Origin: Elusimicrobiota bacterium
Lineage (GTDB): Bacteria; Elusimicrobiota; Elusimicrobia; 2-01-FULL-59-12
Assembly (NCBI GenBank): GCA_041660185.1
Contig: JBAZWU010000011.1
Coordinates: forward strand, 28,883 to 92,882
Direction: 5' to 3'
Length of the DNA stretch: 64,000 nt
How positions within the stretch are numbered: the stretch's first letter is position 1; every line of letters starts with the position of its first letter. Under the pieces are notes generated by a model. The model did no database searches, was not told where the DNA came from, and saw only the letters and a list, made by a program, of their open reading frames with translations. Shown one piece after another: positions 26,757 to 63,900 of the stretch. The translations under genes were made by a program, and so were the position numbers.

Positions 26757-26886
26757 CCCTCACCCCAACCCTCTCCCTCAGCAGGGGGAGGGAGTTTCAG
26801 ATTCTCTGCACGTTTCCTTTCCCTCTCCCTGTTGAGGGAGAGGGAAAGCCGGACGGCCGCAGGCCGGACAGGCGCGGGTGAGGGCA
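26757..26886. repeat. ~130-bp composite palindromic repeat (P/G/E-coding 'GEG' element), copy A, intergenic between convergent genes
   Basis: 'ccctcaccccaaccctctccctcagcagggggagggag' ... 'ccctctccctgttgagggagaggg' ... 'gggtgaggg'. It contains nested hairpins with 10-bp perfect stems. The family recurs at 49348, 58021, 58447 and 59307. Confidence 0.8.
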
Positions 26887-45992: not shown

Positions 45993-46000
45993 GGGGGGCC

Positions 46001-47899: not shown

Positions 47900-47902
47900 G
47901 CC

Positions 47903-49234: not shown

Positions 49235-49347
49235 TTTGACTGGTTCTCCCCTCTTAACGGCCTAGGGGAAGTCTAAGGGGTGCTTTGGGTTTTCGCAAGG
49301 TAAATTTTTCGCAGGAAACCACTAAATCCGCGGGGATTTGAAGTATA

Positions 49348-49436
49348 CCCTCACCCCTACCCTCCCCCTCCGCAGGGGGAGGGAGCACAACCTATCTTCC
49401 CCCTCTCCCTCAGGAGGGAGAGGGCTGGGGTGAGGG
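49348..49436. repeat. P/G/E-coding palindromic 'GEG' repeat, copy B (intergenic, upstream of wza-like gene)
   Basis: 'ccctcacccctaccctccccctccgcagggggagggag...ccccctctccctcaggagggagagggctggggtgaggg'. Confidence 0.8.
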
Positions 49437-49452
49437 CAGAGTTGAGTTATTC

Positions 49453-49926
49453 TTACGGTTTTTGACTATTAGCAGGCGCGCCAAGGACCTTCATCGGGAT
49501 GACTTTCCCCTTGGGGGGCGATTCATCCGGCTGGCTTTTAGTAATAGGAAGGGGGCCATCATCAAAATATCCATCAAACCGGAAGGTGAAACAGGCCAGC
49601 GTCCCGAGCGCCACACCAAGCCCATCGGCCATCAGATCATTGACACTGGGATTGGAATCCACCAAGAACTCTTTGGCGACTCCGACTCCTAATACGCCGG
49701 TGGCGGCGACCCAGGTCGCCGGTAGTCGAGGGACATTCATCAGTCGCAGGGTTTGCGTCCCGATAAACGTCCCCCCTGCGCCCAGCCAAAAATGTTCCTG
49801 GGAATCCGTCCGGGTGAAAACAAATTTTTTCTCCACATACTCAACAGCCCCGGCATTCGTTCCCCAGAATAAGCACACCGCCAGAAAGCAGGACGGCGCG
49901 CCGCGCCGAACGTTCATCAGCGCCAC
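49453..49926 (-). CDS. hypothetical secreted protein
   Basis: 157 aa with a signal peptide. It is Gly/aromatic-rich. No family recognised. Confidence 0.35.
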   Translation of the reverse strand: MALMNVRRGAPSCFLAVCLFWGTNAGAVEYVEKKFVFTRTDSQEHFWLGAGGTFIGTQTLRLMNVPRLPATWVAATGVLGVGVAKEFLVDSNPSVNDLMADGLGVALGTLACFTFRFDGYFDDGPLPITKSQPDESPPKGKVIPMKVLGAPANSQKP

Positions 49927-52166
49927 TCACTCCGAAGAGCGCTCTGGCCGAAATAGTATTCGCAGCGCGGTTTCCAGTCTTCATTGACCGGAGCACCGGC
50001 GCCCATCGACCGGACAACCGCCCGATCCCCGATATACTCGCGAGCCGCCAGAATCCGCTTCTGGTCTTCCCGGCTGAAGGACGACAGGATGGCTTTTTCC
50101 CGCGCCTCGTTTTTGACCATGGGTTGAAGCGAAGCCAGGCAGAAATGGCTGTACGCCCGCATATAAGGGAATACCGAGGCCAGCGTGTAGGGGATCACAC
50201 GGTGTTCGCTGGACCAGACCATCAGAACTCCCTGAGGGGTGAGACGCCGGCTGGCCAGTTCAAAGAATTGGCGGGAGTAGAGGTTGTTGCTGTACACCGT
50301 GCTGTGGTAGATCGGATCCATTTGAATCGCGTCATATTTTTCCGTCTGGCGGATGAGAAAACGCCGGCCGTCGTCCATGACCAGGCGAAGACGATGATCC
50401 GCCAGCGACGACTGGATCAACGGGATCTTGCGGAGATTCGTCATCAAGGTGTGATTGAGCTCGACCACCACCAGTTCTTCGATTTCCCGCGATCGCAGGA
50501 TGATGTCGCACAATTCTCCGGTACCGTACCCGATCAGGAGAATTTTCCGGGGGTTTGGCGTATAGAGCAGGGTTTCAACCGCTTCCTGCATGAAGTCATA
50601 ATTGGGCCGGCCGCCGTGAACCAAACCGTTGATGTAATTGATCAGCCGTTCCCCTTTCGAATAGGTCACCACGACCCCTTCCCGTCCCTCTTCAATGAAG
50701 CAGGTGCCGTAATCGAAGTTGGGGTGAATCGCCCCGTAGAGCGCTTGCCGTCGCGGGAATAGCCCGGCAGCGACCAGGCCGACCATCACCACGGTCAGCA
50801 CCGCTTTCCCATACGGAAGAGCGATCTGGAACCGCCGGTAAAACGGGAAAATAAACACCAGCCCTCCGGCGATGAAAAGCAGGAGGGTATTTTCCGTTCC
50901 CCAGCGCGGCAGAAAATAAAATCCGGTGACAAGCCCCCCCAGCACATTGCCCAGAATGGTCCAGGCGTATACCCCGCCGACCGTTGAAGCCTCCCGGTTG
51001 GGGTCTCTCAGGCTCAACGCCGACACGAGCGGGAAACTGGCGCCCATCAGGACGGTGGGCAGGAAAATAAATAAGAACGGCCACGTCACGATATCCACCG
51101 TCAAATAGAGATCCCGGGCATACTGCATCCAACTCACAAAATGCGGCCAGTGCGCCGGCGGATGCATCATGTACCCGAACGAAATGGCATGCAGCCATTT
51201 AAACGGCCGGATCCCGCTTAAATGGAAAAATCCCGCAAAGGAAACCAGCATGTAACAGGCGATCGCGAGCTGGATACCGAAGAAAAACCGTTCCCGCTGG
51301 GCCGCTTGCGGATGGCGGGCCAGCATCCCGGACATCCAGAAACTGCCCACCGCCAGTCCCACGAGATACACCGCCAGCACCGTGGCAAACGCGTAGGGCG
51401 ATTCTTTGACGATCACCCCCAGCACCCGGTACCAGATAATCTCATACCCGATGGCAGCAAAACCGGTAAAGAAAACCCACAACCGCACCCACCGCATCGG
51501 GAAGGACGAAGACTCTGCGGCGACCGGTTGAGGCGGACGATCCGTCCGGGACCAGCGCCAGCGGCAGACGAGGATCAGAATCGCCATCACTCCGTTGACG
51601 GCGGCCGCGACAGTCAGCGCCGTATCGAGCCCGCCGAAAGTGATCAACCCATAAGCGGCGGTCAGCGACCCGATGGCCGCACCGATCGTATTGATGAAGT
51701 ACAGATGGCTGATGGTTTGGCCAAAATCCGGCAGGAGTGAACCGTATATTTTGGTGAGCATCGGCAAGGTCATCCCCATGAGCGTCGTCGGGATGAGCAA
51801 GAAGAGACTGACGCAGAGAAACGTGACCGGCAGCGAGCAGCCCGCGCTCACGCGTCCGAGCGCGTCCAAAATCTGAAAACTGGCCAGACCAAAGACGCCG
51901 ATCAGAAGTTCAATCCCGGCATACAAAAACATCCGGTCGCGTTTTTTTTCCGCCAGCCGCCCGCCGATCAACGCCCCGAGGCCCAGCCCTCCCATGAAAA
52001 CGGAAATGATCAGGGTAATGGAGACCGAGCCGACGCCGTAATACAGCGTCAGCAGTCTCTGCCAAACCACTTGATAGATGAGAGCGGTAAATCCGGAGAG
52101 GAAAAAAACAGACGTCAACAGTCTGCTCACGGATATCGGCGGCCGCTGAAGGGGTGCGTTGTCCAT
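49917..52166 (-). CDS. fused membrane (MFS-like multi-TM) / spermidine synthase-family (PABS) protein
   Basis: The N-region is polytopic (~12 TM, 'FFLSGFTALIYQVVWQRLL'). The C-region 'ILLIGYGTGELCDIIL...VVVELNHTLM...RLVMDDGRRFL...YDAIQMDP' matches the spermidine synthase/aminopropyltransferase fold. Confidence 0.7.
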   Translation of the reverse strand: MDNAPLQRPPISVSRLLTSVFFLSGFTALIYQVVWQRLLTLYYGVGSVSITLIISVFMGGLGLGALIGGRLAEKKRDRMFLYAGIELLIGVFGLASFQILDALGRVSAGCSLPVTFLCVSLFLLIPTTLMGMTLPMLTKIYGSLLPDFGQTISHLYFINTIGAAIGSLTAAYGLITFGGLDTALTVAAAVNGVMAILILVCRWRWSRTDRPPQPVAAESSSFPMRWVRLWVFFTGFAAIGYEIIWYRVLGVIVKESPYAFATVLAVYLVGLAVGSFWMSGMLARHPQAAQRERFFFGIQLAIACYMLVSFAGFFHLSGIRPFKWLHAISFGYMMHPPAHWPHFVSWMQYARDLYLTVDIVTWPFLFIFLPTVLMGASFPLVSALSLRDPNREASTVGGVYAWTILGNVLGGLVTGFYFLPRWGTENTLLLFIAGGLVFIFPFYRRFQIALPYGKAVLTVVMVGLVAAGLFPRRQALYGAIHPNFDYGTCFIEEGREGVVVTYSKGERLINYINGLVHGGRPNYDFMQEAVETLLYTPNPRKILLIGYGTGELCDIILRSREIEELVVVELNHTLMTNLRKIPLIQSSLADHRLRLVMDDGRRFLIRQTEKYDAIQMDPIYHSTVYSNNLYSRQFFELASRRLTPQGVLMVWSSEHRVIPYTLASVFPYMRAYSHFCLASLQPMVKNEAREKAILSSFSREDQKRILAAREYIGDRAVVRSMGAGAPVNEDWKPRCEYYFGQSALRSEWR

Positions 52167-52209
52167 AAATGAGACTTGGGTAGTTTAGCACAACATAAAA
52201 AACTTTGCT

Positions 52210-53367
52210 TTGATGTCTTTGGCTATGAAATCCCCTCACAAACCGGCGTTCGAGCTTCAACTCCTATGCAAACTCCTGGCTTTGCGGCCAAGCCAGGAGG
52301 AATGTCTTTCAGACCTCCGCGCACCAGGTTTTTGCTGGGATCTATTCCTTCAGTTGGCGGAGTACCACGGGGTGATCGGATTTCTCTACGAGGCCCTGAC
52401 CGAAACCGGCCTGGCCCGGGAAGTTCCACCCAAGCTCCTGGAAGCGCTGCGGCATTCCACTCTGGTTCTCCTGGAAGAGCACCTGCAGCACAGGAGCGCG
52501 ATCCGGAAAACGCTGGAAACCCTGAACGCGGCCGGGTTGGAATTTATCGTTATTAAAGGGTGGTCACACGCCGAATCACTTCATGGGAACCCCTGCGCCC
52601 GTCCCATCACGGACCTGGACCTTCTCGTACACGACACGAAGGCGGCTCAAGCCCTGCTGAAACAACAGAGACTGCCGGACCCATCGATCGTAGACTGGCA
52701 TATCTATCCCACAAACACGTCGGATCTGCCGTCCCGCATGCGGTGCCTGCAGCTCGACATCCAGACGCTCTGGGCGGATTCGCGCCTCGCCACGATCACA
52801 GACACGCCGGCGCGCGTTCTTTCTCCGGCTGACCAGGTCATCGCCCTGGTGATCGACTTCACGATTTCGCATGGGTTCGGGAGGCTACTCCTTTTAAAGG
52901 AGATCCTGCTTCTGGCTGAAAAAGTCGGATGGGATGCGCTGGTGAAGAGGGCTCAACTATTCCAGGCTGACATTTTGCTGTACTTGACCCTCCGCATGGG
53001 AGAGGAACTTCTGCGATTCCCGGTTCCCCTCGATATTTTAAAAATCTTAGGGACTCGCTTAAGGCAAGAAGAACACTGGCTGGAAAAACGGCTGATTCAA
53101 AATCCGCTTTTTACCCCGGCCCGGTATTTCTGTATTCCGATTCTCCTGCCTTCCTGGGCCGATCGCCTGAGTTTTGCCAAAGAACTGCTCTGGCCTCCCC
53201 CCTATTGGTTCGAGCTCCGCAGCGAAAAACCGTCTCTCTGGCGCCACCTCATCCATGACGCGACGCTTATCGGCAAGGCATGCGCCATTTTATGGAACGT
53301 CAGGGGACGTAGTTGCAACTTTGCAAAAGGTGCCGGAAAAAATCCTTTTTTCCCCAAGACCGGGTAA
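52210..53367 (+). CDS. uncharacterised nucleotidyltransferase family protein (PF14907/NTP_transf_5-like), RiPP-cluster accessory type
   Basis: 'LNAAGLEFIVIKGWSHAESLHGNPCARPITDLDLLVHDTKAAQALLKQQ' matches the IKG...R..DIDLLV...D signature of this family. Confidence 0.65.
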   Translation: MMSLAMKSPHKPAFELQLLCKLLALRPSQEECLSDLRAPGFCWDLFLQLAEYHGVIGFLYEALTETGLAREVPPKLLEALRHSTLVLLEEHLQHRSAIRKTLETLNAAGLEFIVIKGWSHAESLHGNPCARPITDLDLLVHDTKAAQALLKQQRLPDPSIVDWHIYPTNTSDLPSRMRCLQLDIQTLWADSRLATITDTPARVLSPADQVIALVIDFTISHGFGRLLLLKEILLLAEKVGWDALVKRAQLFQADILLYLTLRMGEELLRFPVPLDILKILGTRLRQEEHWLEKRLIQNPLFTPARYFCIPILLPSWADRLSFAKELLWPPPYWFELRSEKPSLWRHLIHDATLIGKACAILWNVRGRSCNFAKGAGKNPFFPKTG

Positions 53368-53423
53368 AACAAGAAATATAGGCCATTTCCTGTCTCGTTG
53401 TGCAAAGTTGCAACTACGTCCCC
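53303..53423. repeat. REP pair: forward 23-bp REP (53303-53325) and inverted copy (53401-53423) with 75-bp spacer
   Basis: Exact matches to GGGGACGTAGTTGCAACTTTGCA and its reverse complement. They sit between the nucleotidyltransferase and ABC ATPase genes. Confidence 0.85.
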
Positions 53424-53446
53424 TGACGTTTTATATACTCAAACGT

Positions 53447-54190
53447 GTGACTTGTTCCATCGACGTACGGGGTGTTTCGAAATCGTTTTTCCCGCGGCTC
53501 TCTTTATTAAAACCCTGGCAGCCGAGGCCCCCCGTCCGCGCGCTCAATCACGTGAACCTCCGGGTGGAAACAGGAACGGTTTTCGCCCTGCTGGGCCCGA
53601 ATGGTTCCGGCAAAACGACCCTCCTCAAAATCATCAGCACGCTTCTGATGCCGGATGCCGGGACGCTTCGCGTGCTGGGTCACGTCCTGCCGGGGCAGGA
53701 GGAACGCGTCAAAACGCGAATCAGTTTCGCCATGGGAGACGAGCGAAGTTTCTACTGGCGCCTGACCGCCCGGCAGAACTTGATGTTTTTTGCTGCGCTC
53801 TATGATCTTTCCCCCCGGCAATCCGAACAAAAGATCGCTGAACTGGGTGACGTGTTCAGCCTGAAAGACTACCTTGACCGCCCCTACGAAGAACTCTCAT
53901 CCGGGATCCGGCAGCGCCTGGCGATCGCGCGATCCTTTCTGAACGACGCGGCCCTCCTGCTGGCCGATGAACCCACCCGCAGCCTCGATGCGGCCGCCAG
54001 AAACGCGCTTCACGGACTTCTTCAAAAACTCGTGCGGGAACACGGAAAAACGATTCTCTTCACAACGCATAATTTTGAGGAAGCCCGACGGGTGGCGGAC
54101 ACGGTAGGGATTTTGAATCAGGGCCGGCTTTGTTACTCCGGAAAATGGAAAGACGGCCTGGAGAGTTACCTCAATGCCCCCGCTTCGTAA
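53447..54190 (+). CDS. ABC transporter ATP-binding protein
   Basis: 'LLGPNGSGKTTLLKII' is Walker A, 'LSSGIRQRLAIARSF' the signature, 'LLLADEPTRSLD' Walker B. A GTG start at 53447 is chosen downstream of the REP; the listed ORF starts earlier inside repeat DNA. Confidence 0.85.
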   Translation: MTCSIDVRGVSKSFFPRLSLLKPWQPRPPVRALNHVNLRVETGTVFALLGPNGSGKTTLLKIISTLLMPDAGTLRVLGHVLPGQEERVKTRISFAMGDERSFYWRLTARQNLMFFAALYDLSPRQSEQKIAELGDVFSLKDYLDRPYEELSSGIRQRLAIARSFLNDAALLLADEPTRSLDAAARNALHGLLQKLVREHGKTILFTTHNFEEARRVADTVGILNQGRLCYSGKWKDGLESYLNAPAS

Positions 54191-54989
54191 ACTCTGGGCT
54201 TTTTCCCTCCGGGACTGGCAGCTCGCCCAGACGTATCGCTTTACTTTTTTGTTTGAGGTGGTCCGCACGCTGATCTTGCTGCTCTCGTTTTATTTCATCG
54301 GCAAATTGGTCCGGAGCAGCGGTGTTCACCCATCCCTGGCTGTATACGGAGGCGATTACTTTCGCTTCGTCCTTTTGGGCATCGTGTTCAGCGGCTTCAT
54401 GTCCACCGCTCTGGGCAGCGTGCGGCAGACGATTGAATTTGAACGGGGGCATGGGACATTGGAAGCCATTTTACTGACCCCCACTCCCCTGATCACGCTC
54501 GTGATCAACAAAACCCTGTGGGATCTCGGCATGGTCACAGCCAAGGCCGTCCTGTATCTCCTGGCAGGAGTTTACTTTTTTCGAGTGGATCTCTCGCACG
54601 TTTATTGGACCAGCACGCTGGTGGCCATCGCTTTGACAGTCAGCACCTTTTTTGGTTTAGGGCTGATCTCCGCCGGTATTCATTTACTCATCCGGGAAGA
54701 CAGCCCTTTGGACCTGATTTTGGAAGGAGCCTCGCGCTTCCTGGGAGGCGTTTATTTCCCGGTGGCGGTTCTTCCCGCGCCTCTTCTCGCGCTGTCCCGC
54801 TGGGTGCCGCTCACCTATGCGCTCGACGCGATCCGAAAATCCATGATTCTTGGAGCTTCGCTTCAAACCATCCGGATGGAACTACTGGTGCTGGCAGGGT
54901 GTTCGATCGTTCTGGTTCCGATCGGCGTGATCTGTTTTCAGAGCGCTTTCAAGACCGCCCGACGCAGGGGAATTCTCAGCTTCGAGTAG
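54174..54989 (+). CDS. ABC-2 type transporter permease
   Basis: 271 aa, 6 TM. Overlaps the ATPase stop. The ABC-2 family topology is typical. Confidence 0.75.
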   Translation: MPPLRKLWAFSLRDWQLAQTYRFTFLFEVVRTLILLLSFYFIGKLVRSSGVHPSLAVYGGDYFRFVLLGIVFSGFMSTALGSVRQTIEFERGHGTLEAILLTPTPLITLVINKTLWDLGMVTAKAVLYLLAGVYFFRVDLSHVYWTSTLVAIALTVSTFFGLGLISAGIHLLIREDSPLDLILEGASRFLGGVYFPVAVLPAPLLALSRWVPLTYALDAIRKSMILGASLQTIRMELLVLAGCSIVLVPIGVICFQSAFKTARRRGILSFE

Positions 54990-55745
54990 GGTTTTACAAA
55001 GAAAGGCCATCGGCGCTGAAGGTTCCCCAGCCTGCTGGAAACCCAGGGACCGGTAAAGTCGGAGGGCAGCTTGATTATCCGATTCCACCGTTAAACAAAG
55101 TTCTCTGACCCCTTGTTGGCGTGCCGTCCGTATCAGCTCCCCTAACAACAAAGTCGCGATTCCGCCGCCGCGGACCCAAGCGCGGACAAGCAGGTCTTTG
55201 ATGTTTTCCTTTTGATTCGGCTTGACGACGAGAAAAACATAACCGGCTTTCCAAGAACCGATAAAGGCCTGAAAAACAAAGGCGCCCTCTTCTTCCATCC
55301 GATTAATCCGGACCCGCGAAGCCAAATAAACCCTGAACAACACACGGTATAAATGGAAAGACTGGACCCAGGACAAAACCCGGATTCCCGCCATTTTCAC
55401 TTGTCGCTTCATCCAGGAAGGCCCGTATCGAATGAACAGAAAAAGGAAATACCGTCTCCGAAGATCTTTTTCAAGGAAAATTCGGCTTCCCCGTTTGACC
55501 ATTTCCAAGCGACCGATCAATTGATCTTCGCGGATCCATTCGATCGCTAGCGGAAGCTCATCTCCTGCTACTCCGAAATAATTTGGCCCAGCCGACAATC
55601 GCCTGATGCACCTCAACCGGTGAGCCACCGGGTTATCGTGTTCCGTCTGGCGATAAAGCAGGATGTCTCCAATTTTGAGGGTGGTTGATGATGAGAAGGC
55701 CCGGACAAAAAGCTCATCGCCCGGGCGAAGGAAGGGCTGCATACT
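54882..55745 (-). CDS. fusion: S24/S26-type (signal-peptidase/LexA-like) serine peptidase domain + GNAT N-acetyltransferase domain
   Basis: The N-region 'GGSMQPFLRPGDELFVRA...IGDILLYRQ' matches the GDSMxPTL..GD box of Ser-Lys dyad peptidases. The C-region 'VRGGGIATLLLGELIRTARQQGVRELCLTVESDNQAALRLYRSLGF' is the GNAT acetyl-CoA binding motif. The start is placed at the internal Met; the ORF's first residues are REP-encoded. Confidence 0.55.
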   Translation of the reverse strand, partial: SMQPFLRPGDELFVRAFSSSTTLKIGDILLYRQTEHDNPVAHRLRCIRRLSAGPNYFGVAGDELPLAIEWIREDQLIGRLEMVKRGSRIFLEKDLRRRYFLFLFIRYGPSWMKRQVKMAGIRVLSWVQSFHLYRVLFRVYLASRVRINRMEEEGAFVFQAFIGSWKAGYVFLVVKPNQKENIKDLLVRAWVRGGGIATLLLGELIRTARQQGVRELCLTVESDNQAALRLYRSLGFQQAGEPSAPMAFLCKTLLEAENSPASGGLESALKTDHADRNQNDRTPCQHQ

Positions 55746-55785
55746 GCCACCCTCGGCCCGGCAGAAAAACGAGCCGGGAGCACTA

Positions 55786-55863
55786 GGGGACGTAGTTGCA
55801 ACTTTGCATAAGGTATTCATATGACACAAGATACCTTTGATGCAAAGTTGCAACTACGTCCCC
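55786..55863. repeat. REP pair: forward REP (55786-55808) and inverted copy (55841-55863) around a palindromic 32-bp spacer
   Basis: Exact 23-bp matches. The spacer 'taaggtattcatatgacacaagatacctttga' is itself an inverted repeat. Confidence 0.85.
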
Positions 55864-55887
55864 TGGCGGTCTTTCGCGACATCTCCG

Positions 55888-56091
55888 TCAGGACGTGGTG
55901 GCGCCGGAATCCCGGGCGGTTGTCACGCTTGCCCGCCGGCAACCGTTGGAGGTCCGACATCCCTTTGTTCCTCTGACAGACAAGCTGGTGCCGCTTCGTG
56001 TGCATGTGCTGAGAATGGCCTGCTCCCGGCGGAGCACAACTTGGGTGATTTGCGGGGACTGATACGGCTTTTTTTCAGTTACAGTCGTCAT
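55888..56091 (-). CDS. candidate RiPP precursor peptide (67 aa: leader MTTVTEKKPYQSPQITQVVLRREQAIL; Cys/Ser/Thr/Arg-rich core)
   Basis: The ATG starts immediately after the TAA of the upstream radical SAM gene. A strong SD 'AGAGGGAGAG' lies 5-14 nt upstream. My translation gives MTTVTEKKPYQSPQITQ... as listed. The core has 3 Cys and 18 Ser/Thr. Confidence 0.5.
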   Translation of the reverse strand: MTTVTEKKPYQSPQITQVVLRREQAILSTCTRSGTSLSVRGTKGCRTSNGCRRASVTTARDSGATTS

Positions 56092-57141
56092 TTAGCTCTC
56101 CCTCTGTGCGATAAACATCGCTTTTTTCTCCGCGACTTCCCGAAAATAGGGCATGCAAGGGGCATCAAATGCTTTTTGGTCCAACCAACCATCCATGCTT
56201 CCCCGATCGCAATGAAACGCGATCGGACAGGATGAGCACGCGTAGGCAGGGCCCGGCTTCTGCGCCGCGACAAACTTCACCAACGTTTGCCAGCCTTTTT
56301 CAACCGACCCCGCCGTCACATCATACGACGGATGATGGATGCAGACACAAAGATTCATCCGGCCATGAGGCGTCAAAGCGGCGTTGCTCTTGCCACAAAG
56401 ACAATCGAACAGTTTCCCGGCGGAACCGCATTTCCCCTCCAAGGATCCGCCGGCCTCTTGCATTGGCTTTCCGCTATTTTCACGCCATATCTCGAAAACC
56501 CTGGCAGGCGACAACCGGTACATCAAGGGTTCTTTTGAACCGTCCACTCTGGGATAGATGTCCGTGCCGATCCGATAGGGCAGTTGACGGGACCGGGCGA
56601 AGTCTTTCATGGGCTCCAGTTCGTGTTCATTCAGCGTCATCAAAACGAGTTTCAGCAGGATGGGGATATGCCTTTCTTTCAGCCAATCAACCCCCTCGAC
56701 AAAATGAGCGTAGGAACCGGGGATGCGCGTCACAGATTCATAACTGTCAGCCGTGGCGCCATAAACGGAAATTTCCACCAGATAAGGATCCAACTCCGCC
56801 ATCTGATCCGCCAGCGCCGGCGTGATCAGAGTGGCGTTCGTAGTGATCGTAATCACCATCCCAAGTGAGCGGGCATACCGCATAATCTCACAGGCATCCC
56901 GCCGGGTGAACACCTCTCCTCCGGTGAAACCGATCCACAGGCATCCCTGAGCCGCCATCTCATCTAACAGTCGGTAAACCTGTTCCGTGGTCAGTTCCTG
57001 TTTCGCTTCGTGGGTTGTGTTATAACAGTGCACGCAGCGCAGGTTGCAGCCGTACGTCAGCTCCACCGTGGCCTGAATCCACTGCGGACGGGCCTTGGCG
57101 TCCTCACTCAGCTGATCGATGAATTGATCAAACTCTTTCAT
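56092..57141 (-). CDS. radical SAM/SPASM domain peptide-modifying enzyme (rSAM-1)
   Basis: 'TYGCNLRCVHCY' is CxxxCxxC. The C-terminal Cys-rich SPASM region is 'CGSAGKLFDCLCGKS...CVCIHH...CSSCPIAFHCDRG'. The start is placed at 'MKEFDQ' (14-nt overlap with the kinase gene). Confidence 0.85.
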   Translation of the reverse strand: MKEFDQFIDQLSEDAKARPQWIQATVELTYGCNLRCVHCYNTTHEAKQELTTEQVYRLLDEMAAQGCLWIGFTGGEVFTRRDACEIMRYARSLGMVITITTNATLITPALADQMAELDPYLVEISVYGATADSYESVTRIPGSYAHFVEGVDWLKERHIPILLKLVLMTLNEHELEPMKDFARSRQLPYRIGTDIYPRVDGSKEPLMYRLSPARVFEIWRENSGKPMQEAGGSLEGKCGSAGKLFDCLCGKSNAALTPHGRMNLCVCIHHPSYDVTAGSVEKGWQTLVKFVAAQKPGPAYACSSCPIAFHCDRGSMDGWLDQKAFDAPCMPYFREVAEKKAMFIAQRES

Positions 57142-58012
57142 AAAGATAACGGACGATACGGTTGTCTTGAGTAAAGCGCAGTTCGCCGCTGGGAACATCC
57201 TTGACCAGGCGGGTCGCTGCCTCCACGAGCCGTGCCATGGCTTCCTGATTCCAAAGAGGCAAATACGCTTCCGTGAAAATCGATTTCAATACGGGCTGAG
57301 GCGGCCGCGGGAGAAACTGATTGTCCGTCGCCTGGACCAGAACTGAAAAACGCTTGAGAAGCGCTGCCCCCTTGGAAACCTGCCGAAGCTCGCCGTGCCA
57401 GGGCGTTCCCGCTACGTGCCAGTGTTTTCCCTCCCGCCAGAGAAGAATACGCTCGTCATTCAGCACCTGAGCGGAAGAATGTGTCCGGAAGAGCCTGGAA
57501 ATCGTGGTCTTGCCGGCGCCGGAGTGACCGATGAATGCCAGCCCCTTGCCCGACAGAGAAACCGCTGCCCCATGCAAAATCATCCCTTTCCTCCGAAGCG
57601 CCAGCCAGCCGGTCAGCCACCATTGGATCAAAGGCTCGGCCACATCTCCCAGGTACCACCCCTTCTGGCGAAGCCCGGGTGACCGGTACGTGAGCGGAAT
57701 CAGATGGAGATCGATTTGATCCCACTTCGGGGTGATGAAACACACCTGCCTGGGCAGAAAATGCATTTGTTCCAGAATTTCCAATCGCACTCTGCCCCTC
57801 TCCTGGTAGACGCGCCATTGATTGGGAAGCTCATAAAGGAAGCGGGGCTTCCCATGCGGCTTGGGCGCATCGGTCCGGACCTGGATGGTCACGGTCGGCG
57901 GGAGAGAATTTCTGTCTTCAAAGACACCGCAAAATTCATGCGGCCAATCATGCGGCGGGGTATCCGCGATAAATCGAATGACGGCAGGGCCGATTTTGAT
58001 AGTGAGCTTCAT
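57128..58012 (-). CDS. HPr kinase/phosphorylase C-terminal-domain-like protein (HprK-related kinase)
   Basis: 'GMILHGAAVSLSGKGLAFIGHSGAGKTT' is a P-loop in the HprK-C context. It overlaps the rSAM-2 stop (ATGA) and the rSAM-1 start. Confidence 0.7.
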   Translation of the reverse strand: MKLTIKIGPAVIRFIADTPPHDWPHEFCGVFEDRNSLPPTVTIQVRTDAPKPHGKPRFLYELPNQWRVYQERGRVRLEILEQMHFLPRQVCFITPKWDQIDLHLIPLTYRSPGLRQKGWYLGDVAEPLIQWWLTGWLALRRKGMILHGAAVSLSGKGLAFIGHSGAGKTTISRLFRTHSSAQVLNDERILLWREGKHWHVAGTPWHGELRQVSKGAALLKRFSVLVQATDNQFLPRPPQPVLKSIFTEAYLPLWNQEAMARLVEAATRLVKDVPSGELRFTQDNRIVRYLYERV

Positions 58013-59274
58013 GACGATGCCCCCTCACCCCTACCCTCCCCCTCAACAGGGGGAGGGAGCGTAAGATTTTTCGCGGATGTATCCCCTCTCCCTGCTGAGG
58101 GAGAGGGGCTGGGGGTGAAGGTCAAGATGCTGGCAGTTTGCCGAGCTTTCGCTACTTCACAGAAATAAGGGACCGGCGCTTCCATGGACCCTGCCTCATG
58201 GATCGCCATCACGGGATTTTTGTCGCAGAACAGATGGGAGGAACAACTCCGGCACGCCGACTCCCCGGTGTAGCGGGCCTGATTGATTTCCTCGGCTGAG
58301 CGCTGGAACGCCTCGGAAACAGGGATCGTTTTCAGATCATACGACGGCCAGGTGGTGAACGTGCAGGGGCGAAACACACCGTACGGACTGACCGTCAATT
58401 GATTGGTCCCGCATCCGCAGCGAAAGAGCCGGTCATCCGGGGGGGGACCCTCACCCCAACCCTCCCCCTCAACAGGGGGAGGGAGTATGAAATCTGCGGG
58501 GGATCCCCCCTCTCCCTGTTGAGGGAGAGGGCAAGCAGGACGACCGCTAGGTCGGACAGGCGCGGGTGAGGGTTTACACTCCTCTGCCACCTCCAGTTCA
58601 GCCACCTCGGCTCCAGATAACCGGTACTGCGTGGAGGAAAGGTCCCCGTTCAAACGCGGGTAAATCGTGGGATAGAGACTGAAATCCACCCCCAATCCTT
58701 CCACGTACGCTCTGATCTCGCCCAATTCCTGACGATTAACGGTCATGGCCTTGGTTTTGATCGCCACCGACAAACGCCGGTCCAGTAACCGGCGGATCCC
58801 TGCCTGAAAACACGCGTAGGAACCCGGCACCTGGGTCACCCGCTCAAAGGTCTCGGCACGAACGCCATGCAAACTCACCTCCAACTGAAAGGGAGGGTCC
58901 TTGGCGAGAAAATCCGCGATCTCGTCCGTGATCGTTGTCCCGTTGGTGAATAACGCGATCAGGAATCCTCTCTCCTTGGCCGCACGATATATATCCTTGA
59001 ATCGCGGATGAAGTACCGCTTCTCCTCCGGTGAGGGTAAGCCAGAGCACGCCGGCGGAGGCCAGGTCGTCAAGAATCCGGATCATTCCCGGCAGCGGCAA
59101 TTCCCGCGACAACGCCGTCGGGGTGTTAAAGGGGTCTGTAAAACAATGGACGCAATGGAGATTACATCGGTAAGTCAGTTCCAACTGTGCCTTGAGAGGA
59201 CTCCGATTTTCGACGCTCCGGGAAAAGACCCGGGCGCTGAACACACTGTACATTTCTTCTTGAAACTTGCTCAT
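58009..59274 (-). CDS. radical SAM/SPASM domain enzyme (rSAM-2) carrying in-frame repeat-encoded P/G/E-rich linker and C-terminal tail
   Basis: 'TYRCNLHCVHCF' is the rSAM motif. SPASM 'CGCGTN...CTFTT...CRSCSSHLFCDK'. The segment 'PLPQQGEGGSPADFILPPPVEGEGWGEGPPP' between the rSAM and SPASM domains and the tail 'LPPPVEGEGRGEGASS' are encoded by the palindromic repeats at 58447-58572 and 58021-58120. Confidence 0.8.
   Translation of the reverse strand: MSKFQEEMYSVFSARVFSRSVENRSPLKAQLELTYRCNLHCVHCFTDPFNTPTALSRELPLPGMIRILDDLASAGVLWLTLTGGEAVLHPRFKDIYRAAKERGFLIALFTNGTTITDEIADFLAKDPPFQLEVSLHGVRAETFERVTQVPGSYACFQAGIRRLLDRRLSVAIKTKAMTVNRQELGEIRAYVEGLGVDFSLYPTIYPRLNGDLSSTQYRLSGAEVAELEVAEECKPSPAPVRPSGRPACPLPQQGEGGSPADFILPPPVEGEGWGEGPPPDDRLFRCGCGTNQLTVSPYGVFRPCTFTTWPSYDLKTIPVSEAFQRSAEEINQARYTGESACRSCSSHLFCDKNPVMAIHEAGSMEAPVPYFCEVAKARQTASILTFTPSPSPSAGRGDTSAKNLTLPPPVEGEGRGEGASS
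58021..58120. repeat. P/G/E-coding palindromic 'GEG' repeat, copy C (overlapping rSAM-2 3' end / HprK-like start)
   Basis: 'cccctcacccctaccctccccctcaacagggggagggag...cccctctccctgctgagggagaggggctgggggtgaagg'. Confidence 0.8.
58447..58572. repeat. P/G/E-coding palindromic 'GEG' repeat, copy D (long variant), inserted in-frame inside rSAM-2
   Basis: 'ccctcaccccaaccctccccctcaacagggggagggag...cccccctctccctgttgagggagagggcaagcaggacgaccgctaggtcggacaggcgcgggtgaggg'. It shares its tail with copy A (26757-26886). Confidence 0.8.
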
Positions 59275-59306
59275 TTCCTAAACCCTCTAACGAACACATC
59301 TACGGA

Positions 59307-59396
59307 ACCCTCATCCGGCCTGCGGCCACCTTCCCTCTCAACAGGGGGAAGGACATTCTCCCTCTCCCTGTTGAGGGAGAGGGGACGGGGGTGAGG
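59307..59396. repeat. P/G/E-coding palindromic 'GEG' repeat, copy E (intergenic between rSAM-3 and rSAM-2)
   Basis: 'ccttccctctcaacagggggaagga...ccctctccctgttgagggagaggggacgggggtgaggg'. Confidence 0.8.
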
Positions 59397-59397
59397 G

Positions 59398-61575
59398 TTA
59401 AATGGTTTGGACAGCACCGATCGCCCGAAGTTCCGACAAATACGTCGCGACGTCCTGTTCGGCAACAGCGGAATCCACTGTAAATGCTTTTCCCAGCAAC
59501 GCTGTCAGTTCCCGGCCCGTACGCCGGCCGTCAATCTGTTCCCACAGGAAAGCGCCGACCTCATTCAACGTATAAAGAGATGGCTCCTGATTCGGCTGCC
59601 GGTTCGCGGGAACCAGAACCATCTCCCCCGCCACCCGGCGGGCCACCATCGTCGGGCACTTTTGAAACCGAAAATCCAGCTGTTCTGTTGAAGCCGCCAT
59701 GATCGTTCCTCCGCTTTTTTTCAGGTTCTGTATGATGCTGTTCCAGTTCTGTCGGGCGGCCGGCCACTCCGGGTCCAACTCCATCAAGCGCTCGTATTCC
59801 CGCAGGGCCGGTTCCCACTGTTTGAGAAATTCTTCCTTGTAAGCGGGCGTAGCATACAACGTTCGATAAGAGGGGTCCAGGGAAATCATCCGCTCCCAGG
59901 CTTCCCGGGCCGACGGGACATCGTTCCGCCCGAGGGCTTCGCAGACTTGCTCATAAACGCGCGCCGCCGAGCCGGCAGGCGGTTGATCCTCGACGAGAGC
60001 AGCGGGATCCAGCAGCGCGCGCTGAATGAGATCGCCGAAATATTTGTACCGCAGCGGCGTGTATCCTTTATTGACCGAGTACGAAAGGGTCACAAAGTCC
60101 GTCGGCAGCTCAACGGCCCGGAGACGCCGGAGAAAGTGACTCGGCTGCAGCCAGGGACCGGCGTAGTCGCTGTCAAAATACGGAAACAATCCAGTCCCGT
60201 CGATGTGGCGAGTCAGGAGATAATCCACATCGATGTCCAGGAGAACCGGTTTTATAAAGCGGGGCAGCGACTCCAGCCGGCACACCGTCAACGGGCATCC
60301 CATCAATAGGAGATGAATCCCTGTCTCGGAAACCCGTAAAGGGCCTGCCGAATCCGGTCTCGCATGAATCATTTCGTTAATCCATTGAATGAGTTTCTGC
60401 CGTTGGTCAGGGGTTTCCCAAAAACCATCAGGGATGACCCAATAAAGCTCGCGGATGAAGCCTTCCCGGATGGCTGGATAAAGGAAATTACCACTGTCCA
60501 TCGCTTTATGCGGAGGATGGTCATCGATCCAGAAAAAATCCAGATGACCGTCCAGATGAATCAGGGTTCGGCCCTGGACTCCAGCGTCTTTCCAGAGGGT
60601 GTAGGCCGTCTCATGATCTTCCATCAGATGGATCGACTTCGAAGGAATCGGATCAGCCGCCGCCAGGGATTTCTTTCGGGGGCAGGGAAAGCTCGGCAGC
60701 GCTTTGTAAAACCCTTCCAGAAAGGAGCCTCGTCTCAAGTCGTAGCTGGCCCGCCGGTTGTTGGAACACAGCTGAAGCTGCCCGTACGCATCGATGTGGA
60801 ATTTGTAGCGTCCCCCCTGACAGGGGAAGTCATCGGGGTATGTGGCGTGGCCGTCACGCTCCCGCTCCGCCCAGAGCTGAGGGTCCTGACGCTCGATGGC
60901 CGCCAGGTCTTTGTCGGACAACTGGAATCGCAGAGGGGCTCCACTGCCGGTCAGATCATCGAGCAGGTGTTCTCCAAACTGAAAAGACACGCCGGGACCG
61001 AAGTCGTCCACATAACGTTTGATCGCCAAAATCTCGTCCCGGTTCAGCGTCGTCCCCACTGTTTTCAACGTCACCGGGATCTGCCGTTCCATCAAAAGCC
61101 GAACCGCCTCCACATTCAGGGGACGTAGTTGCAACTTTGCACAAACAGCATCAGAGATCGCATGAAGGCTGATTTCCACCCGCACGGGAGGCATCCTGGC
61201 CCATTGATCGGCGATCTCGCGCGTGATGAGCGTTCCATTGGAGAAAACCGTAATGAGAAATCCAAAACGGTGAGCGGTTTCATAAATCTCCATGAAATCA
61301 GGCCGGCACAGCGGCTCCCCGCCGGTGAACGTGACTTCCAGGCAACCCGCGGCCTGGATCTCATGGAGAATGCGAAGGATGTCAGCGGTAGGAAGCTCCT
61401 GACGGATCCGCTCCGGCGTATTGAAACAATCCGTATAGCACATGGCACACGTCAGATTGCACCGGCAGGTGAGTTCCCACTGGCCGACCAAAGGAGCGCG
61501 ACCCTGGAGAGAACGGGCCAAGACTTGATCGCCGAAAACCTGCGATGAGCGGGTCGGGAAAGCGGGGATGGCCAT
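59398..61575 (-). CDS. multidomain protein: radical SAM (twitch/SPASM-like) domain + ~300-aa uncharacterised domain + TPR-like segment + C-terminal PqqD-like (RRE) domain (rSAM-3)
   Basis: 'LTCRCNLTCAMCY' is the rSAM cluster motif. The middle has a 'HLDGHLDFFWIDD' metal-site-like motif. The C-terminus 'LYTLNEVGAFLWEQIDGRRTGRELTALLGKAFTVDSAVAEQDVATYLSELRAIGAV' matches the PqqD fold pattern. The start is placed at 'MAIPAF'; the listed ORF starts within a REP. Confidence 0.75.
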   Translation of the reverse strand: MAIPAFPTRSSQVFGDQVLARSLQGRAPLVGQWELTCRCNLTCAMCYTDCFNTPERIRQELPTADILRILHEIQAAGCLEVTFTGGEPLCRPDFMEIYETAHRFGFLITVFSNGTLITREIADQWARMPPVRVEISLHAISDAVCAKLQLRPLNVEAVRLLMERQIPVTLKTVGTTLNRDEILAIKRYVDDFGPGVSFQFGEHLLDDLTGSGAPLRFQLSDKDLAAIERQDPQLWAERERDGHATYPDDFPCQGGRYKFHIDAYGQLQLCSNNRRASYDLRRGSFLEGFYKALPSFPCPRKKSLAAADPIPSKSIHLMEDHETAYTLWKDAGVQGRTLIHLDGHLDFFWIDDHPPHKAMDSGNFLYPAIREGFIRELYWVIPDGFWETPDQRQKLIQWINEMIHARPDSAGPLRVSETGIHLLLMGCPLTVCRLESLPRFIKPVLLDIDVDYLLTRHIDGTGLFPYFDSDYAGPWLQPSHFLRRLRAVELPTDFVTLSYSVNKGYTPLRYKYFGDLIQRALLDPAALVEDQPPAGSAARVYEQVCEALGRNDVPSAREAWERMISLDPSYRTLYATPAYKEEFLKQWEPALREYERLMELDPEWPAARQNWNSIIQNLKKSGGTIMAASTEQLDFRFQKCPTMVARRVAGEMVLVPANRQPNQEPSLYTLNEVGAFLWEQIDGRRTGRELTALLGKAFTVDSAVAEQDVATYLSELRAIGAVQTI
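61119..61141. repeat. single REP copy lying in-frame inside the rSAM-3 coding sequence (encodes ...AKLQLRPL...)
   Basis: Exact 23-bp 'ggggacgtagttgcaactttgca'. Protein length around it appears normal for the rSAM fold. Confidence 0.8.
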
Positions 61576-61592: not shown

Positions 61593-62621
61593 TCAGGGGA
61601 CGTAGTTGCAACTTTGCATATTGAGTCTTTCCTTAAGCTCAAACCGATGGGCCAGGCGCTGACCTCGTTCAAATGCCCTGCTGGCGGTGCTCGTTGATAG
61701 AACGAGTTGCTTCCCCATCCCGGTGACAGATTGCTTAAACCAGACTACTCCGGCATATACCGCCATGGCCTTCGCATCTGACAGCGCGCGCCGCTGACCC
61801 GTTTCGGAAAAGTAATGGGGGTCTTCTCCGGTCAGATCGGCAATAAGATCCAATACCTTTTCAAAATTGATTGATTTTGGAATGGGCGTTTCATCACAAC
61901 CGTCTTTCGCCTTGCGCAGGGTTTCTTCCACAAAAGCACTGTCCCCCAGCAAACGTAGGTCGTACGCGTAGGCTTCACCGCTTCTGATGGCCTGCAGAGC
62001 AGGACCTCCCCCTCCCCAACTACGAATAAGTCCGCCTCCTTCTAACTGGTCCTGTCGTTTCTGACTCCAAGCCTCCATTACAAATAATTCGTAGTTTGCC
62101 CGCGCCTGGCGCAAAGTCGGGCCAAAACGTTCAAGAACTTTCCCGGCAACCTGCCAGGGCCTGTCTAAGGTACCCATCAGAGCCGAGTGGCTTGTCCAAG
62201 GATAGACAGCCAGTTCAGAAGGCGATCGGACAATTCCCGCGCGCACTGGGTTAAGAGCGATATAACGTATCAGCTCCAGAAAATAGGGATCCTCCTGACA
62301 GATGATGTCCTTGTATCGGTTTTGAAACAAATGACCGGCGCGCTGATAGCGCAGGTTAAATGAGACGGCATACCCAGTCAAAAGCTTTTGCATGACCCGA
62401 GAAATGCGCGTGGAAGCCGTCTGGAGCAACAGGTGCAGGTGATTAGGCATGAGCGCCCAGGCGTAACAGAGGGTTTTCGTTTCTTGGAGGATGCGACCTA
62501 ACCGGTCGGCGAATTCGGAGTAATCTCGATTTGATCTAAAAATAGAGCGTTTTTCAATTCCCCTCGCGATTACGTGATGAAAGAGTCCAGGGAAGTCGAT
62601 ACGAGGTAAACGTGGCATCAC
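61593..62621 (-). mobile_element. REP-associated tyrosine transposase (RAYT; IS200/IS605-family Y1 HUH transposase) with ~190-aa C-terminal extension, flanked by inverted REPs (61596-61618 and 62665-62687)
   Basis: 'MPRLPRIDFPGLFHHVIARGIEKRSIFRSNRDYSEFADRL...YAWALMPNHLHLLLQT' contains the HuH motif (HLH) and the Y1 architecture. The REP at its 3' end encodes the C-terminal '...MQSCNYVP'. An inverted REP with 1 mismatch lies 44 bp upstream of the start. Confidence 0.75.
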
Positions 62622-62697
62622 TTACTTAGATAAAGTTTTTGGCGATATATTCGAGGGGGTGCTATGAAAAGTTGCAACTACGTCCCCTGACGTTGGT

Positions 62698-63900
62698 TTA
62701 GCGCATCAGGTTCAGGACGTATTGCTGGCCTTCTTCGAATTGACCGCGATGAACAGGGTTTAAATCCCGGATAAATAGTTCCGCCTGCCATTGTTCAAAA
62801 ATCACGAAGTCAAACACCCGGTTCATGCCGCATTCGATCCCTGTCCCGCGAAAAAGACCGGCCTGCAGGGAAGCCGGGAACCGCTCCAACTGCCGGGGGA
62901 ACCGGGCAGAGCAACGCATGTCGGTTCTCCACAAGTCGTACAAAAACCCTCCGACTCCTTCGAGAAAGGGGTCCCGCTGCGAAGCCGCCAGATGACTGAC
63001 CCGCTCGTCCAACCAGGGGGCCATGCGGGCGAAGCTCGGATCCATGCTGTACCAATAGCGGGCCGACAATCGGCCGGCTGTCCTCAAAAATGAATGGGCC
63101 CTGGGATCATCCGGCAGAGAAGGAATGGCCCGCCGCAATTTGATCAAGTGTTCGGACCGCAGAGGAAATTCCTTCCCTTCCCCAAATGACAACCCCAGGA
63201 ATGCCTGCTCCGAGCAGCGAGGTGAAATTCGATCAAAGACCCGGCCTGTCTCCAAAGCCCTTTTTGGAACCCAGGCGTCCCGCCGCAAGACCGGCTCAGC
63301 CAGAGAGAAGCAGAGATAGTTTTTCCACATGTCCGGCGCCTTCTCCGCCTCTTCGATCAAAATCGCCTCGCCATGGGGCTGAGGATTGTTCCACGCAACG
63401 AACTGCGTGACCGCGGCGGTTAACTCGGCGGCGTCTTCCGGCCCCAGACGTCCGATCAGGCGCTCGTAGTAGCGCCGGCAGGCTTCGCTGGAGGAAGCAA
63501 AAACCGCCGGCAGATACTGGTACGTGTATCCCTTGGCCGTCAGGCAGCGCCCGATGCTGGCTGTCGAGAAAAATGAAATGCTGGACAGGATGCCGCCGCT
63601 GATCAACAAACCCACGACCCACTTTGCGTTCAAACAACTCATCGCCCAGGCCGCCGCCAGGAAGATAAACGGCAGCGCGGGGATCCGGTACCGCATAATA
63701 TCCAACTCCGGACTCGCCGACTGCAGCACGACAACAAAAATAAATAGAGTCAGGACACTCAACCGGATGAGGGGAGGAACAGCTTTTTTCACCCGCCAGA
63801 CCGATAAGGCGGTCATCCCCCCAAACAAAACGCTATAGAGAGCATCCACCCAAAGACGCTGTCGGGAAGGCCACTCTTCGCTGGCAAACGATTTAGCCAA
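62698..63900 (-). CDS. hypothetical membrane-anchored protein
   Basis: 400 aa. N-terminal TMs ('LSVLTLFIFVVVLQ', 'ALPFIFLAAAWAM', 'VVGLLISGGILSSISFF') are followed by a large soluble domain. No family recognised. Confidence 0.4.
   Translation of the reverse strand: MAKSFASEEWPSRQRLWVDALYSVLFGGMTALSVWRVKKAVPPLIRLSVLTLFIFVVVLQSASPELDIMRYRIPALPFIFLAAAWAMSCLNAKWVVGLLISGGILSSISFFSTASIGRCLTAKGYTYQYLPAVFASSSEACRRYYERLIGRLGPEDAAELTAAVTQFVAWNNPQPHGEAILIEEAEKAPDMWKNYLCFSLAEPVLRRDAWVPKRALETGRVFDRISPRCSEQAFLGLSFGEGKEFPLRSEHLIKLRRAIPSLPDDPRAHSFLRTAGRLSARYWYSMDPSFARMAPWLDERVSHLAASQRDPFLEGVGGFLYDLWRTDMRCSARFPRQLERFPASLQAGLFRGTGIECGMNRVFDFVIFEQWQAELFIRDLNPVHRGQFEEGQQYVLNLMR

Follow-up and report, generated by a model that had tools for sequence, protein, structure and literature searches.

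Peptide arginases are sought-after tools for placing ornithine in ribosomal peptides. The known members of family PF12640 (UPF0489), among them OspR of the landornamide pathway (PDB-ID: 8BRP), FlmR/OhkR and the biphenomycin enzymes BipC/PbsE, are stand-alone proteins of about 300 amino acids (aa), encoded beside radical S-adenosylmethionine (rSAM) enzymes and Arg-containing precursors in clusters for peptides made by the ribosome and modified after translation (RiPPs). UPF0489 arginases act in rSAM-containing RiPP pathways, e.g. that of the biphenomycins. The family displays three motifs, EEH(N/H)EAF, DXHXD and LDIDLDYFSC, and the manganese ligands of OspR are H12, D39, H41, D43, D165 and D167 (PMC12703449, PMC10028609). 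OspR, which possesses a dimerisation domain, is homodimeric, and how substrates are recognised has been described as unclear (PMC12703449). Here, a related domain is described within a larger protein encoded by a stretch of 64,000 nucleotides from an Elusimicrobiota bacterium (assembly GCA_041660185.1, contig JBAZWU010000011.1, positions 28,883 to 92,882), in the following termed the window. The gene occupies positions 59398–61575 of the minus strand and, read from the ATG at 61575, encodes 725 aa.

In contrast to the stand-alone arginases, the predicted peptide-arginase-like domain of this protein is followed by a tetratricopeptide repeat (TPR)-like region and a PqqD-type RiPP recognition element (RRE), and is fused to a preceding rSAM domain (Table 1). 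An earlier reading of the bare sequence, the original prediction, had divided the protein into rSAM, middle, TPR-like and C-terminal PqqD segments; Pfam scores and a profile search support this division, and all of the elements lie where they had been placed, far above chance. Its claim of an unusual architecture also stands, this exact combination being very rare: among the best 150 matches from 1.84 billion representatives, the sequence itself is the only one that spans both halves. The closest genome match among the GTDB representatives scanned shows 45% identity. The identical sequence has been called by JGI as a protein of 681 aa (P0001), which starts at M45 and thereby cuts the CxxxCxxC motif. 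A TTG start at 61611 (737 aa) was rejected, since it is situated inside a copy of a repetitive extragenic palindrome (REP) and the N-termini of orthologues agree with the ATG at 61575.

The domain identities and the origin by fusion can be given with high confidence. Judged from sequence and structure prediction, the protein is probably a multi-functional RiPP maturase, fused from a PqqE-like rSAM gene of ~325 aa and an 'arginase-TPR-RRE' gene, and RRE-guided conversion of Arg to ornithine is the activity that appears reasonably probable. While the family of the middle domain, the recently described peptide arginases, is already known, a peptide-arginase-like enzyme with TPR and RRE, fused to an rSAM enzyme in a RiPP cassette that shares its toolkit with lasso-peptide clusters, appears to be new, with no mention in the literature searched. 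Searching for UPF0489 together with radical SAM returned two arginase papers and the biphenomycin paper, none of which mentions TPR or RRE fusions.

By profile comparison and modelling, the middle domain stands at the margin of PF12640, as a divergent member or a relative of the peptide arginases. A single-sequence phmmer search against the PDB gave a marginal match to the 'peptide arginase' 8BRP (E 0.011), and a profile of 13 sequences (A2) matched 8brp_A over most of the domain with E 1.1e-12 and with the motif blocks aligned. The AlphaFold2 (AF2) model of the domain reached a mean predicted local distance difference test (pLDDT) score of 85.9 and a predicted template modelling (pTM) score of 0.87. 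When this model was submitted to Foldseek, OspR occupied ranks 1–3 (probability 1.00), followed by agmatinases, arginases and guanidinopropionase. With OspR, FlmR/OhkR and BipC/PbsE the domain shares the predicted α/β/α ureohydrolase fold, the three motifs and the six Mn ligands. The motifs read MEDHETAY (residues 318–325), HLDGHLD (340–346) and LLDIDVDYLL (445–454), and the predicted ligands H321, D342, H344, D346, D447 and D449 align with the six ligands of OspR. HLDGHLD, previously flagged as a possible metal-binding motif, is by these predicted ligands the DxHxD manganese motif of the PF12640 family. In the 81 genome loci that the arginase profile retrieved, HxDxHxD is conserved in 80 and D[IVL]DxD[YFW] in 81. 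An identity as a histone deacetylase (HDAC)-like enzyme was rejected, because the ligand set is of the binuclear arginase type and all fold matches are ureohydrolases. The original description of the middle ~300 aa as uncharacterised has to be withdrawn in view of this kinship to PF12640/UPF0489, which became apparent from the profile and from AF2/Foldseek, although Pfam returned no family match. To a large extent a known family thus accounts for the fusion trivially; however, that family was described only in 2020, and its RRE- and TPR-bearing version is not mentioned in the literature searched.

Several observations weigh against an intact, arginine-converting maturase. A Pfam scan of the middle region (residues ~300–560, E ≤ 10) gave weak TPR and spurious matches and did not find PF12640/UPF0489, and the NCBIfam peptide arginase model NF052474 (FlmR/OhkR) scored 13.6 bits versus a cut-off of 350. 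Since no arginase threshold of Pfam or NCBIfam is reached, the kinship of the window sequence is seen at profile or fold level only; homologues do carry PF12640/UPF0489, with P0002, P0008 and L027 barely passing (28.0–29.4 bits versus 27). The catalytic domain displays E-D-H instead of the E-E-H of OspR: the position of Glu11, proposed to hold the guanidinium group in OspR, is taken by Asp or Asn in the subfamily, and therefore the substrate chemistry could differ. Moreover, in the alignment of A2 with 8brp_A the subfamily lacks ~58 residues that OspR carries between DIDxD and GYTP; these are suspected to include the dimerisation element of OspR. Outside the domain, the residue after the last Cys of the candidate precursor and its homologues, the likeliest target of the enzyme, is Arg in 16 of 19 sequences and is replaced by Lys in 2 and Ser in 1. 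The fused open reading frame (ORF) is supported by one sequence only (P0001, one contig), and the N-terminal rSAM domain may be impaired by an intragenic REP copy.

The divergent Glu11 position and the distance to the NCBIfam cut-off are also compatible with an alternative in which the middle domain is an active ureohydrolase fold with another substrate, namely a guanidino, amidino or amide group (modified Arg, deacylation or leader processing), while RRE and TPR region would still deliver the peptide. The marginal standing of the subfamily in PF12640 (homologues 27–29 bits versus 27, the window sequence without a match) points in the same direction, as does the breadth of the arginase/deacetylase fold, which serves several chemistries, as in the agmatinase and guanidinopropionase matches. 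Methyl-arginine could be such a substrate, given the neighbouring genes in lasso-type clusters for methyltransferases resembling protein arginine methyltransferases (PRMTs). However, the six ligands of a binuclear Mn arginase site, not the mononuclear Zn site of deacetylases, are kept across phyla, the nearest solved structure by profile as well as by fold is a peptide arginase, and Arg is found in every associated core peptide. A different substrate is accordingly considered unlikely, and conversion of peptidyl Arg to ornithine is the preferred reading.

The region C-terminal to the catalytic domain is predicted to be helical in the AF2 model. In the window protein itself, TPR_2 gives the best match (residues 584–603, E 0.009, 16.5–18.8 bits versus 27), with TPR_9 and TPR_14 also below their cut-offs, and the aligned stretch of homologues matches TPR at E 1e-8 to 1e-24. 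At the extreme C-terminus, where a PqqD/RRE domain had been anticipated, PF05402 is clear of its gathering score (52.5 bits versus 23.4) and covers profile positions 1–66 of 67. The solved structures nearest to this domain are a lasso-peptide PqqD chaperone and, next, PqqD. NCBIfam PqqD chaperone families match it below their cut-offs, and no NCBIfam model exceeded its cut-off for any part of the arginase-TPR-RRE half. In PqqD/PqqE-type systems the RRE is a small protein or an N-terminal extension of the rSAM enzyme, whereas in the window it is the C-terminal domain of another enzyme. As the C-terminus of the arginase-TPR module, it is nevertheless located directly upstream of the next rSAM gene, in the usual PqqD-then-rSAM arrangement. 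The full-length AF2 model shows pLDDT values of 84–98 in the rSAM half and of 30–60 at residues ~305–670, where the composite alignment was thin; because of this poor region, no conclusion is drawn on inter-domain packing or RRE docking.

Comparison with related clusters indicates that the gene is, with very high probability, a deletion-type in-frame fusion of two neighbouring cassette genes. In the cluster of the closest relative (L001, a Logan assembly), the corresponding proteins rSAM-A (326 aa) and arginase-TPR-PqqD (476 aa, P0003) are encoded separately and are followed by rSAM-B, a ScmC-like protein, rSAM-C, a 63-aa peptide, an S24 peptidase-methyltransferase and an ABC transporter. The gene order is the same in L002 (Acidobacteria) and L003 (Elusimicrobiota), where rSAM-A and arginase-TPR-PqqD each have an ORF of their own, one next to the other. 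In the window protein, FPCP, the final conserved motif of the rSAM part, precedes (E/D)PIxxIH, the initial conserved motif of the arginase module, by only ~8 aa, whereas L001 has between them a tail of 23 aa with its stop, intervening genes and an N-terminus of 16 aa. A fusion is indicated because the junction of ~8 aa compares with separate tails of 16–23 residues; it would have removed the intergenic region and both protein tails. The domain order, originally singled out as atypical, is rare but of ordinary origin, since L001–L003 show its parts as adjacent genes of a RiPP cassette. Each of the 120 best rSAM-A orthologues listed is a stand-alone protein, 280–353 aa in length.

Support by a single contig, together with the arrangement in L002, where both genes share a frame and are parted by stop codons only, could also be explained by a sequencing or assembly artefact, with separate genes in the organism as in its relatives. 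This is extremely improbable: ~31 residues of tails plus intergenic DNA are missing at the junction, which indicates a deletion and not a point error, and the frame is conserved with orthologues on either side. A fusion present in the organism is thus the preferred reading.

Other combinations of the same modules were found. In P0002/L082 the fusion is reversed (arginase-TPR-PqqD-rSAM-A), and an Elusimicrobia ORF in L027 combines B12-binding, Radical_SAM, UPF0489, TPR and PqqD domains, an architecture that recurs without PqqD in P0008 and L043. The large Elusimicrobia proteins of L027, L042 and L043 represent an independent rSAM-arginase fusion that uses a different rSAM class. Independent fusions in both orders argue, by Rosetta-stone reasoning, that rSAM-A and the arginase-RRE module act together. 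The genes in L027, L042 and L043 adjoin a PqqE-like rSAM gene, a short precursor of the same family and a ScmC-like gene. In L001, a toxin-antitoxin-like NTP_transf_2/HEPN pair (9277–10007) is inserted between rSAM-A and arginase-TPR-PqqD; the junction between these two genes is evidently a rearrangement hotspot.

The N-terminal domain belongs to the radical SAM superfamily (PF04055, 79.1 bits versus a gathering cut-off of 29.5). Its CxxxCxxC motif (C39-x3-C43-x2-C46, positions 61438–61467) has Cys residues that are invariant in orthologues, and a GGEP motif is located at residues 85–88. Full SPASM domains follow the pattern CX9-15GX4C, gap, CX2CX5CX3C, gap, C. The fusion protein is without the CX2CX5CX3C block and gave no SPASM match (PF13186) in the Pfam scan, and hence does not display the full seven-Cys set; C252, C270 and C298 are invariant in 10 orthologues. 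From this cysteine pattern, the auxiliary-cluster region of rSAM-A is a Twitch-like truncation.

Within the rSAM core, the gene carries a copy of a REP element. The 23-mer TGCAAAGTTGCAACTACGTCCCC occurs in nine exact copies in the window versus none expected from shuffles, and the in-frame copy reported in the original prediction is an exact match. In 119 of 120 orthologues the distance from the 'EISLHG' strand (β4) to the next strand is exactly 49 aa, with conserved F, T, GS and RC positions; in the window protein it is 45 aa. At the REP site, the orthologous segment FEGVTRVPGSLARCL with its pattern 'FExxTQxPGSxxRC' is represented by 'CAKLQLRPLN', so that ~15 conserved residues are replaced by ~11 unrelated ones and the protein is 4 aa shorter there. 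A REP-associated tyrosine transposase (RAYT)-like gene (61593–62621, 342 aa), with an N-terminal Y1_Tnp domain (PF01797) and a C-terminal extension of ~200 aa, scores 62.8 bits with NF047646 REP_Tyr_transpos (cut-off 80) and is surrounded by repeats in inverted orientation, the arrangement of a REP/RAYT unit (REPtron). This unit is located directly upstream of the fusion gene, at the expected position of the operon promoter. The intragenic REP is of interest in itself, as a small and clean case in which a mobile repeat has rewritten a conserved part of an enzyme. Further inverted REP pairs (38583/38636, 53303/53401 and 55786/55841) are found within or beside intergenic regions of the cluster.

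A second repeat family consists of paired ~24-nt G/C-rich hairpins (CCCTCYCCCT-loop-AGGGRGAGGG) at nine sites in the window versus none expected. Two hairpin pairs are inserted in frame in rSAM-B, where they lengthen a variable linker by ~33 aa and supply a new C-terminal tail, 'LPPPVEGEGWGEG'; one pair is situated in the 123 bp that separate rSAM-B from the fusion gene.

From these repeats an alternative can be drawn in which the fused ORF is decaying: the REP would have killed the rSAM domain, the fusion would be a deletion by-product, and the product would be lost or made without rSAM-A. The replacement of conserved residues in a segment of fixed length, the RAYT-like gene immediately upstream at the promoter position, the two further insertions in rSAM-B and the restriction of this fusion to the window sequence fit such a decay. 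On the other hand, the long ORFs have stayed open and in frame through three repeat events, as might be expected if intact genes are selected for. The insertions in rSAM-B fall in a variable linker and the C-terminal tail, the remaining invariant residues of rSAM-A (CxxxCxxC, GGEP and the three auxiliary Cys) are intact, and the arginase-TPR-RRE half is free of lesions. The REP-encoded stretch is modelled at pLDDT ~89–95, though this prediction is alignment-driven, and the independent fusions of the same modules in P0002 and L027 argue that fusion is tolerated functionally. Decay is for these reasons judged quite improbable, and a functional fusion protein is preferred.

The gene closes a RiPP cluster that extends from 52210 to 61575 (Table 1). 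Homologues of its candidate precursor are found at the equivalent cluster position in 19 of the 81 loci (20 including L082; homologue loci L001–L003, L015, L019, L022, L027, L033, L036, L037, L042, L043, L051, L058, L061, L067, L075, L080 and L082). The consensus is M..KKPYxxPxIxxVxLxxEQAILxxC...C...C(R), with P13, L20, C30 and C51 invariant in the aligned precursors (n = 19). Every core holds at least one Arg, and the C-terminal residue is Ser in all 19 as well as in L082. An NCBIfam scan found no curated family above cut-off for the precursor or the ScmC-like protein; of the orthologues of the latter, that of L082 matches PF27840 ScmC and that of L001 matches it weakly. The true start of the S26-GNAT gene is probably downstream of the REP at 55786–55808, and its counterpart in L001 is an S24-methyltransferase protein. 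NTP_transf_5 and ABC-2 exporter genes recur in related clusters. Within 8 kb of the arginase-TPR gene, an rSAM gene is found in 45 of the 81 loci, a separate PqqD gene in 37, a ScmC-like gene in 35, an S26-like gene in 29 and NTP_transf_5 in 24. Almost all of these loci are from uncultured bacteria (Acidobacteriota, Omnitrophota, Elusimicrobiota, Nitrospirota, Methylomirabilota and Desulfobacterota-like).

Clustered PqqE-like rSAM/SPASM enzymes, a PqqD-family RRE and an HprK-like ScmC are features that the window shares with PqqD/PqqE pairs, SynChlorMet (ScmC/D/E/F) and GeoRSP systems; each gives a weak match to the models of these systems. However, SynChlorMet and GeoRSP cassettes have not been described with an arginase-TPR component, and the scores with the SynChlorMet models (TIGR04248–04251) are far under the equivalog cut-offs: 66–73 bits versus 400 for ScmE/F, 19.7 versus 100 for ScmD and 12.4 versus 125 for ScmC. 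For the SynChlorMet and Scm names, the literature search yielded unrelated single-cell papers only.

A resemblance is also found to lasso-peptide clusters, which share the KPYxxPx(L/I) leader, a PqqD domain near the lasso B1 chaperone, the HprK-like protein, NTP_transf_5 (PF14907) and arginase-TPR genes. Lasso B1 RREs recognise a YxxPxL leader motif. In contrast to lasso clusters, the window cluster is without a lasso cyclase and a B2 protease; in their place are three rSAM enzymes and a core that contains Cys. Conversely, ~15 further loci (L004–L009, L012, L014, L016, L017, L020, L025, L031, L063 and L073) hold the arginase-TPR gene within a lasso cluster. That of L012 (6139–15894) encodes a PqqD B1, a Transglut_core3 B2, an Asn-synthase-type cyclase, an HprK-like protein, NTP_transf_5 and a PRMT-like methyltransferase; the latter is present in some of these lasso clusters. 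Twelve candidate lasso precursors with a KPYxxPxLxxYG leader were recovered, all with Arg in the core, which suggests that ornithine-bearing or otherwise Arg-modified lasso peptides are made from these loci. HPr-kinase-like enzymes phosphorylate the C-terminal Ser of some lasso peptides, and the combination of HprK-like/ScmC-like protein with NTP_transf_5 phosphorylates and further decorates this residue. By analogy, the invariant C-terminal Ser of the precursors described here would fit Ser phosphorylation by the HprK/ScmC-like protein.

The enteropeptins provide a precedent for the core. There, a Cys adjacent to Arg undergoes rSAM-dependent thiomorpholine formation, followed by action of the arginase KgrD and by N-methylation (PMC12703449). 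Cys-Arg in the core, rSAM and arginase-fold enzymes in the cluster and a possible later tailoring step (GNAT, or the methyltransferase in L001) are likenesses, and in view of the enteropeptin Cys-Arg the conserved Cys-Arg here is especially suggestive. However, KgrD belongs to PF00491 and not to PF12640, the precursors are unrelated, and a thiomorpholine would be assumed by analogy only. No biosynthetic detail was found in a paper on enteropeptin synthesis.

From these comparisons a working scheme can be proposed. The C-terminal PqqD/RRE domain would bind the lasso-like KPYxxPxI leader of the 67-aa precursor, with the short TPR region serving as a peptide-binding or scaffolding spacer. The binuclear-Mn ureohydrolase domain, by its family and conserved ligands, would then convert a core Arg to ornithine and urea; the likeliest target is the almost invariant Arg after the last Cys (C51-R52). 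The Cys-containing core may be modified by the N-terminal rSAM part of the fusion protein and by the stand-alone rSAM/SPASM enzymes B and C, probably with thioether-type cross-links. Further tailoring, cleavage and export might fall to the S26-GNAT enzyme, the HprK/ScmC-like P-loop protein, NTP_transf_5 and the ABC-2 exporter. The GNAT domain (the methyltransferase in L001) may decorate the new δ-amine of ornithine. Both enzymes fit such a role because acylation and methylation are known follow-up chemistry on ornithine in RiPPs (PMC12703449).

More tentatively, and with some doubt, the arginase-TPR(-RRE) proteins may form a distinct, widespread and undescribed subfamily of leader-guided peptide arginases, found both in lasso clusters and in a class of RiPPs with several rSAM enzymes that occurs in uncultured phyla (Acidobacteriota, Omnitrophota, Elusimicrobiota, Nitrospirota and others). 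The precursors of this class would have the form KPYxxPxI...EQAILxxC...C-R...Ser-COOH, and, as the fusion described here and two independent ones elsewhere would then show, a physical complex of arginase and rSAM enzyme would act on Cys-Arg, yielding a convergent, enteropeptin-like thioether/ornithine motif. With an RRE and a TPR region of its own and an rSAM enzyme fused to it, a natural arginase of this kind would offer a defined leader-recognition handle, and the fusion is 'Rosetta-stone' evidence for an enzyme complex. The comparisons made here further tie the gene to a RiPP cassette that is uncharacterised, phylogenetically broad and equipped with a clear family of precursors; the multi-rSAM cassette and the lasso loci are concrete targets for genome mining and expression.

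Table 1. Features of the fusion gene, its cluster and related fusions (window positions unless a locus is named; res, residues of the fusion protein).
Feature	Position	Strand	Evidence
Fusion gene, 725 aa: rSAM (Twitch-like) + peptide-arginase-like domain + TPR + PqqD/RRE	59398..61575	-	ORF, Pfam, orthologue N-termini
Radical SAM core, res 34-187	61015..61476	-	PF04055 E 5.8e-22
In-frame REP copy encoding A146-P152, within 'CAKLQLRPLN'	61119..61141	-	exact 23-mer
Truncated SPASM ('Twitch'-like) auxiliary-cluster region, C252-x12-G-x4-C270 + C298	60682..60822	-	sequence, orthologue alignment
Fusion junction, res 299-316, 'PRKKSLAAADPIPSKSIH'	60628..60681	-	motif spacing vs L001
Peptide-arginase-like (UPF0489/PF12640-related) ureohydrolase domain, res ~308-530	59986..60654	-	profile, AF2, Foldseek, motifs
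Short TPR-like helical region, res ~536-625, about 2-3 repeats	59701..59970	-	TPR_2/TPR_9/TPR_14 sub-threshold, homologues
PqqD-type RRE, res 651-721	59413..59625	-	PF05402 E 6.4e-14
RAYT-like transposase gene with flanking inverted REPs 61596-61618 and 62665-62687	61593..62687	-	PF01797, NF047646
rSAM/SPASM enzyme B, 421 aa, with two in-frame hairpin-repeat insertions	58009..59274	-	Pfam, NCBIfam, orthologue alignment
HprK-related/ScmC-like P-loop protein	57128..58012	-	TIGR04355 HprK_rel_B E 4e-6, TIGR04249 ScmC E 0.07, both below cut-off
rSAM/SPASM enzyme C, 368 aa, next gene upstream of the precursor	56092..57198	-	Pfam, NCBIfam, synteny
Candidate 67-aa precursor MTTVTEKKPYQSPQITQVVLRREQAILSTC...GCRTSNGCRRASVTTARDSGATTS	55888..56091	-	homologous small ORFs
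Signal-peptidase-I-like (S26/S24) + GNAT acetyltransferase fusion	54882..55853	-	Pfam GNAT, NCBIfam sigpep_I
ABC-2 exporter, ATPase (within the range given) and permease	53174-54190; 54174-54989	+	Pfam
NTP_transf_5 nucleotidyltransferase	52210-53367	+	Pfam
Second-repeat sites	58034-58107; 58460-58531; 59329-59383; also 26769-26844; 49360-49424		
B12-binding (class B) rSAM-UPF0489-TPR fusions, ~950-990 aa, Elusimicrobia; PqqD in L027	L027 8486-11458; L042 8414-11383; L043 8471-11338		

Genes of exopolysaccharide type occupy positions 42918–52166 below the cluster, which places the lower end of the RiPP cluster near 52200. They encode a 1024-aa Asn-synthase + GT4 fusion, a tyrosine-kinase-like protein of the Wzz/GNVR type, a Poly_export/SLBB protein and a membrane protein of 749 aa, one domain of which resembles spermine/spermidine synthase. 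On the other side, an ORF of 400 aa (62698–63900) gave no match in the Pfam scan. Unrelated to the fusion gene, the window also contains a transfer-messenger RNA gene (12450–12816, plus strand, 138.8 bits) and a tRNA gene (20566–20639, minus strand).

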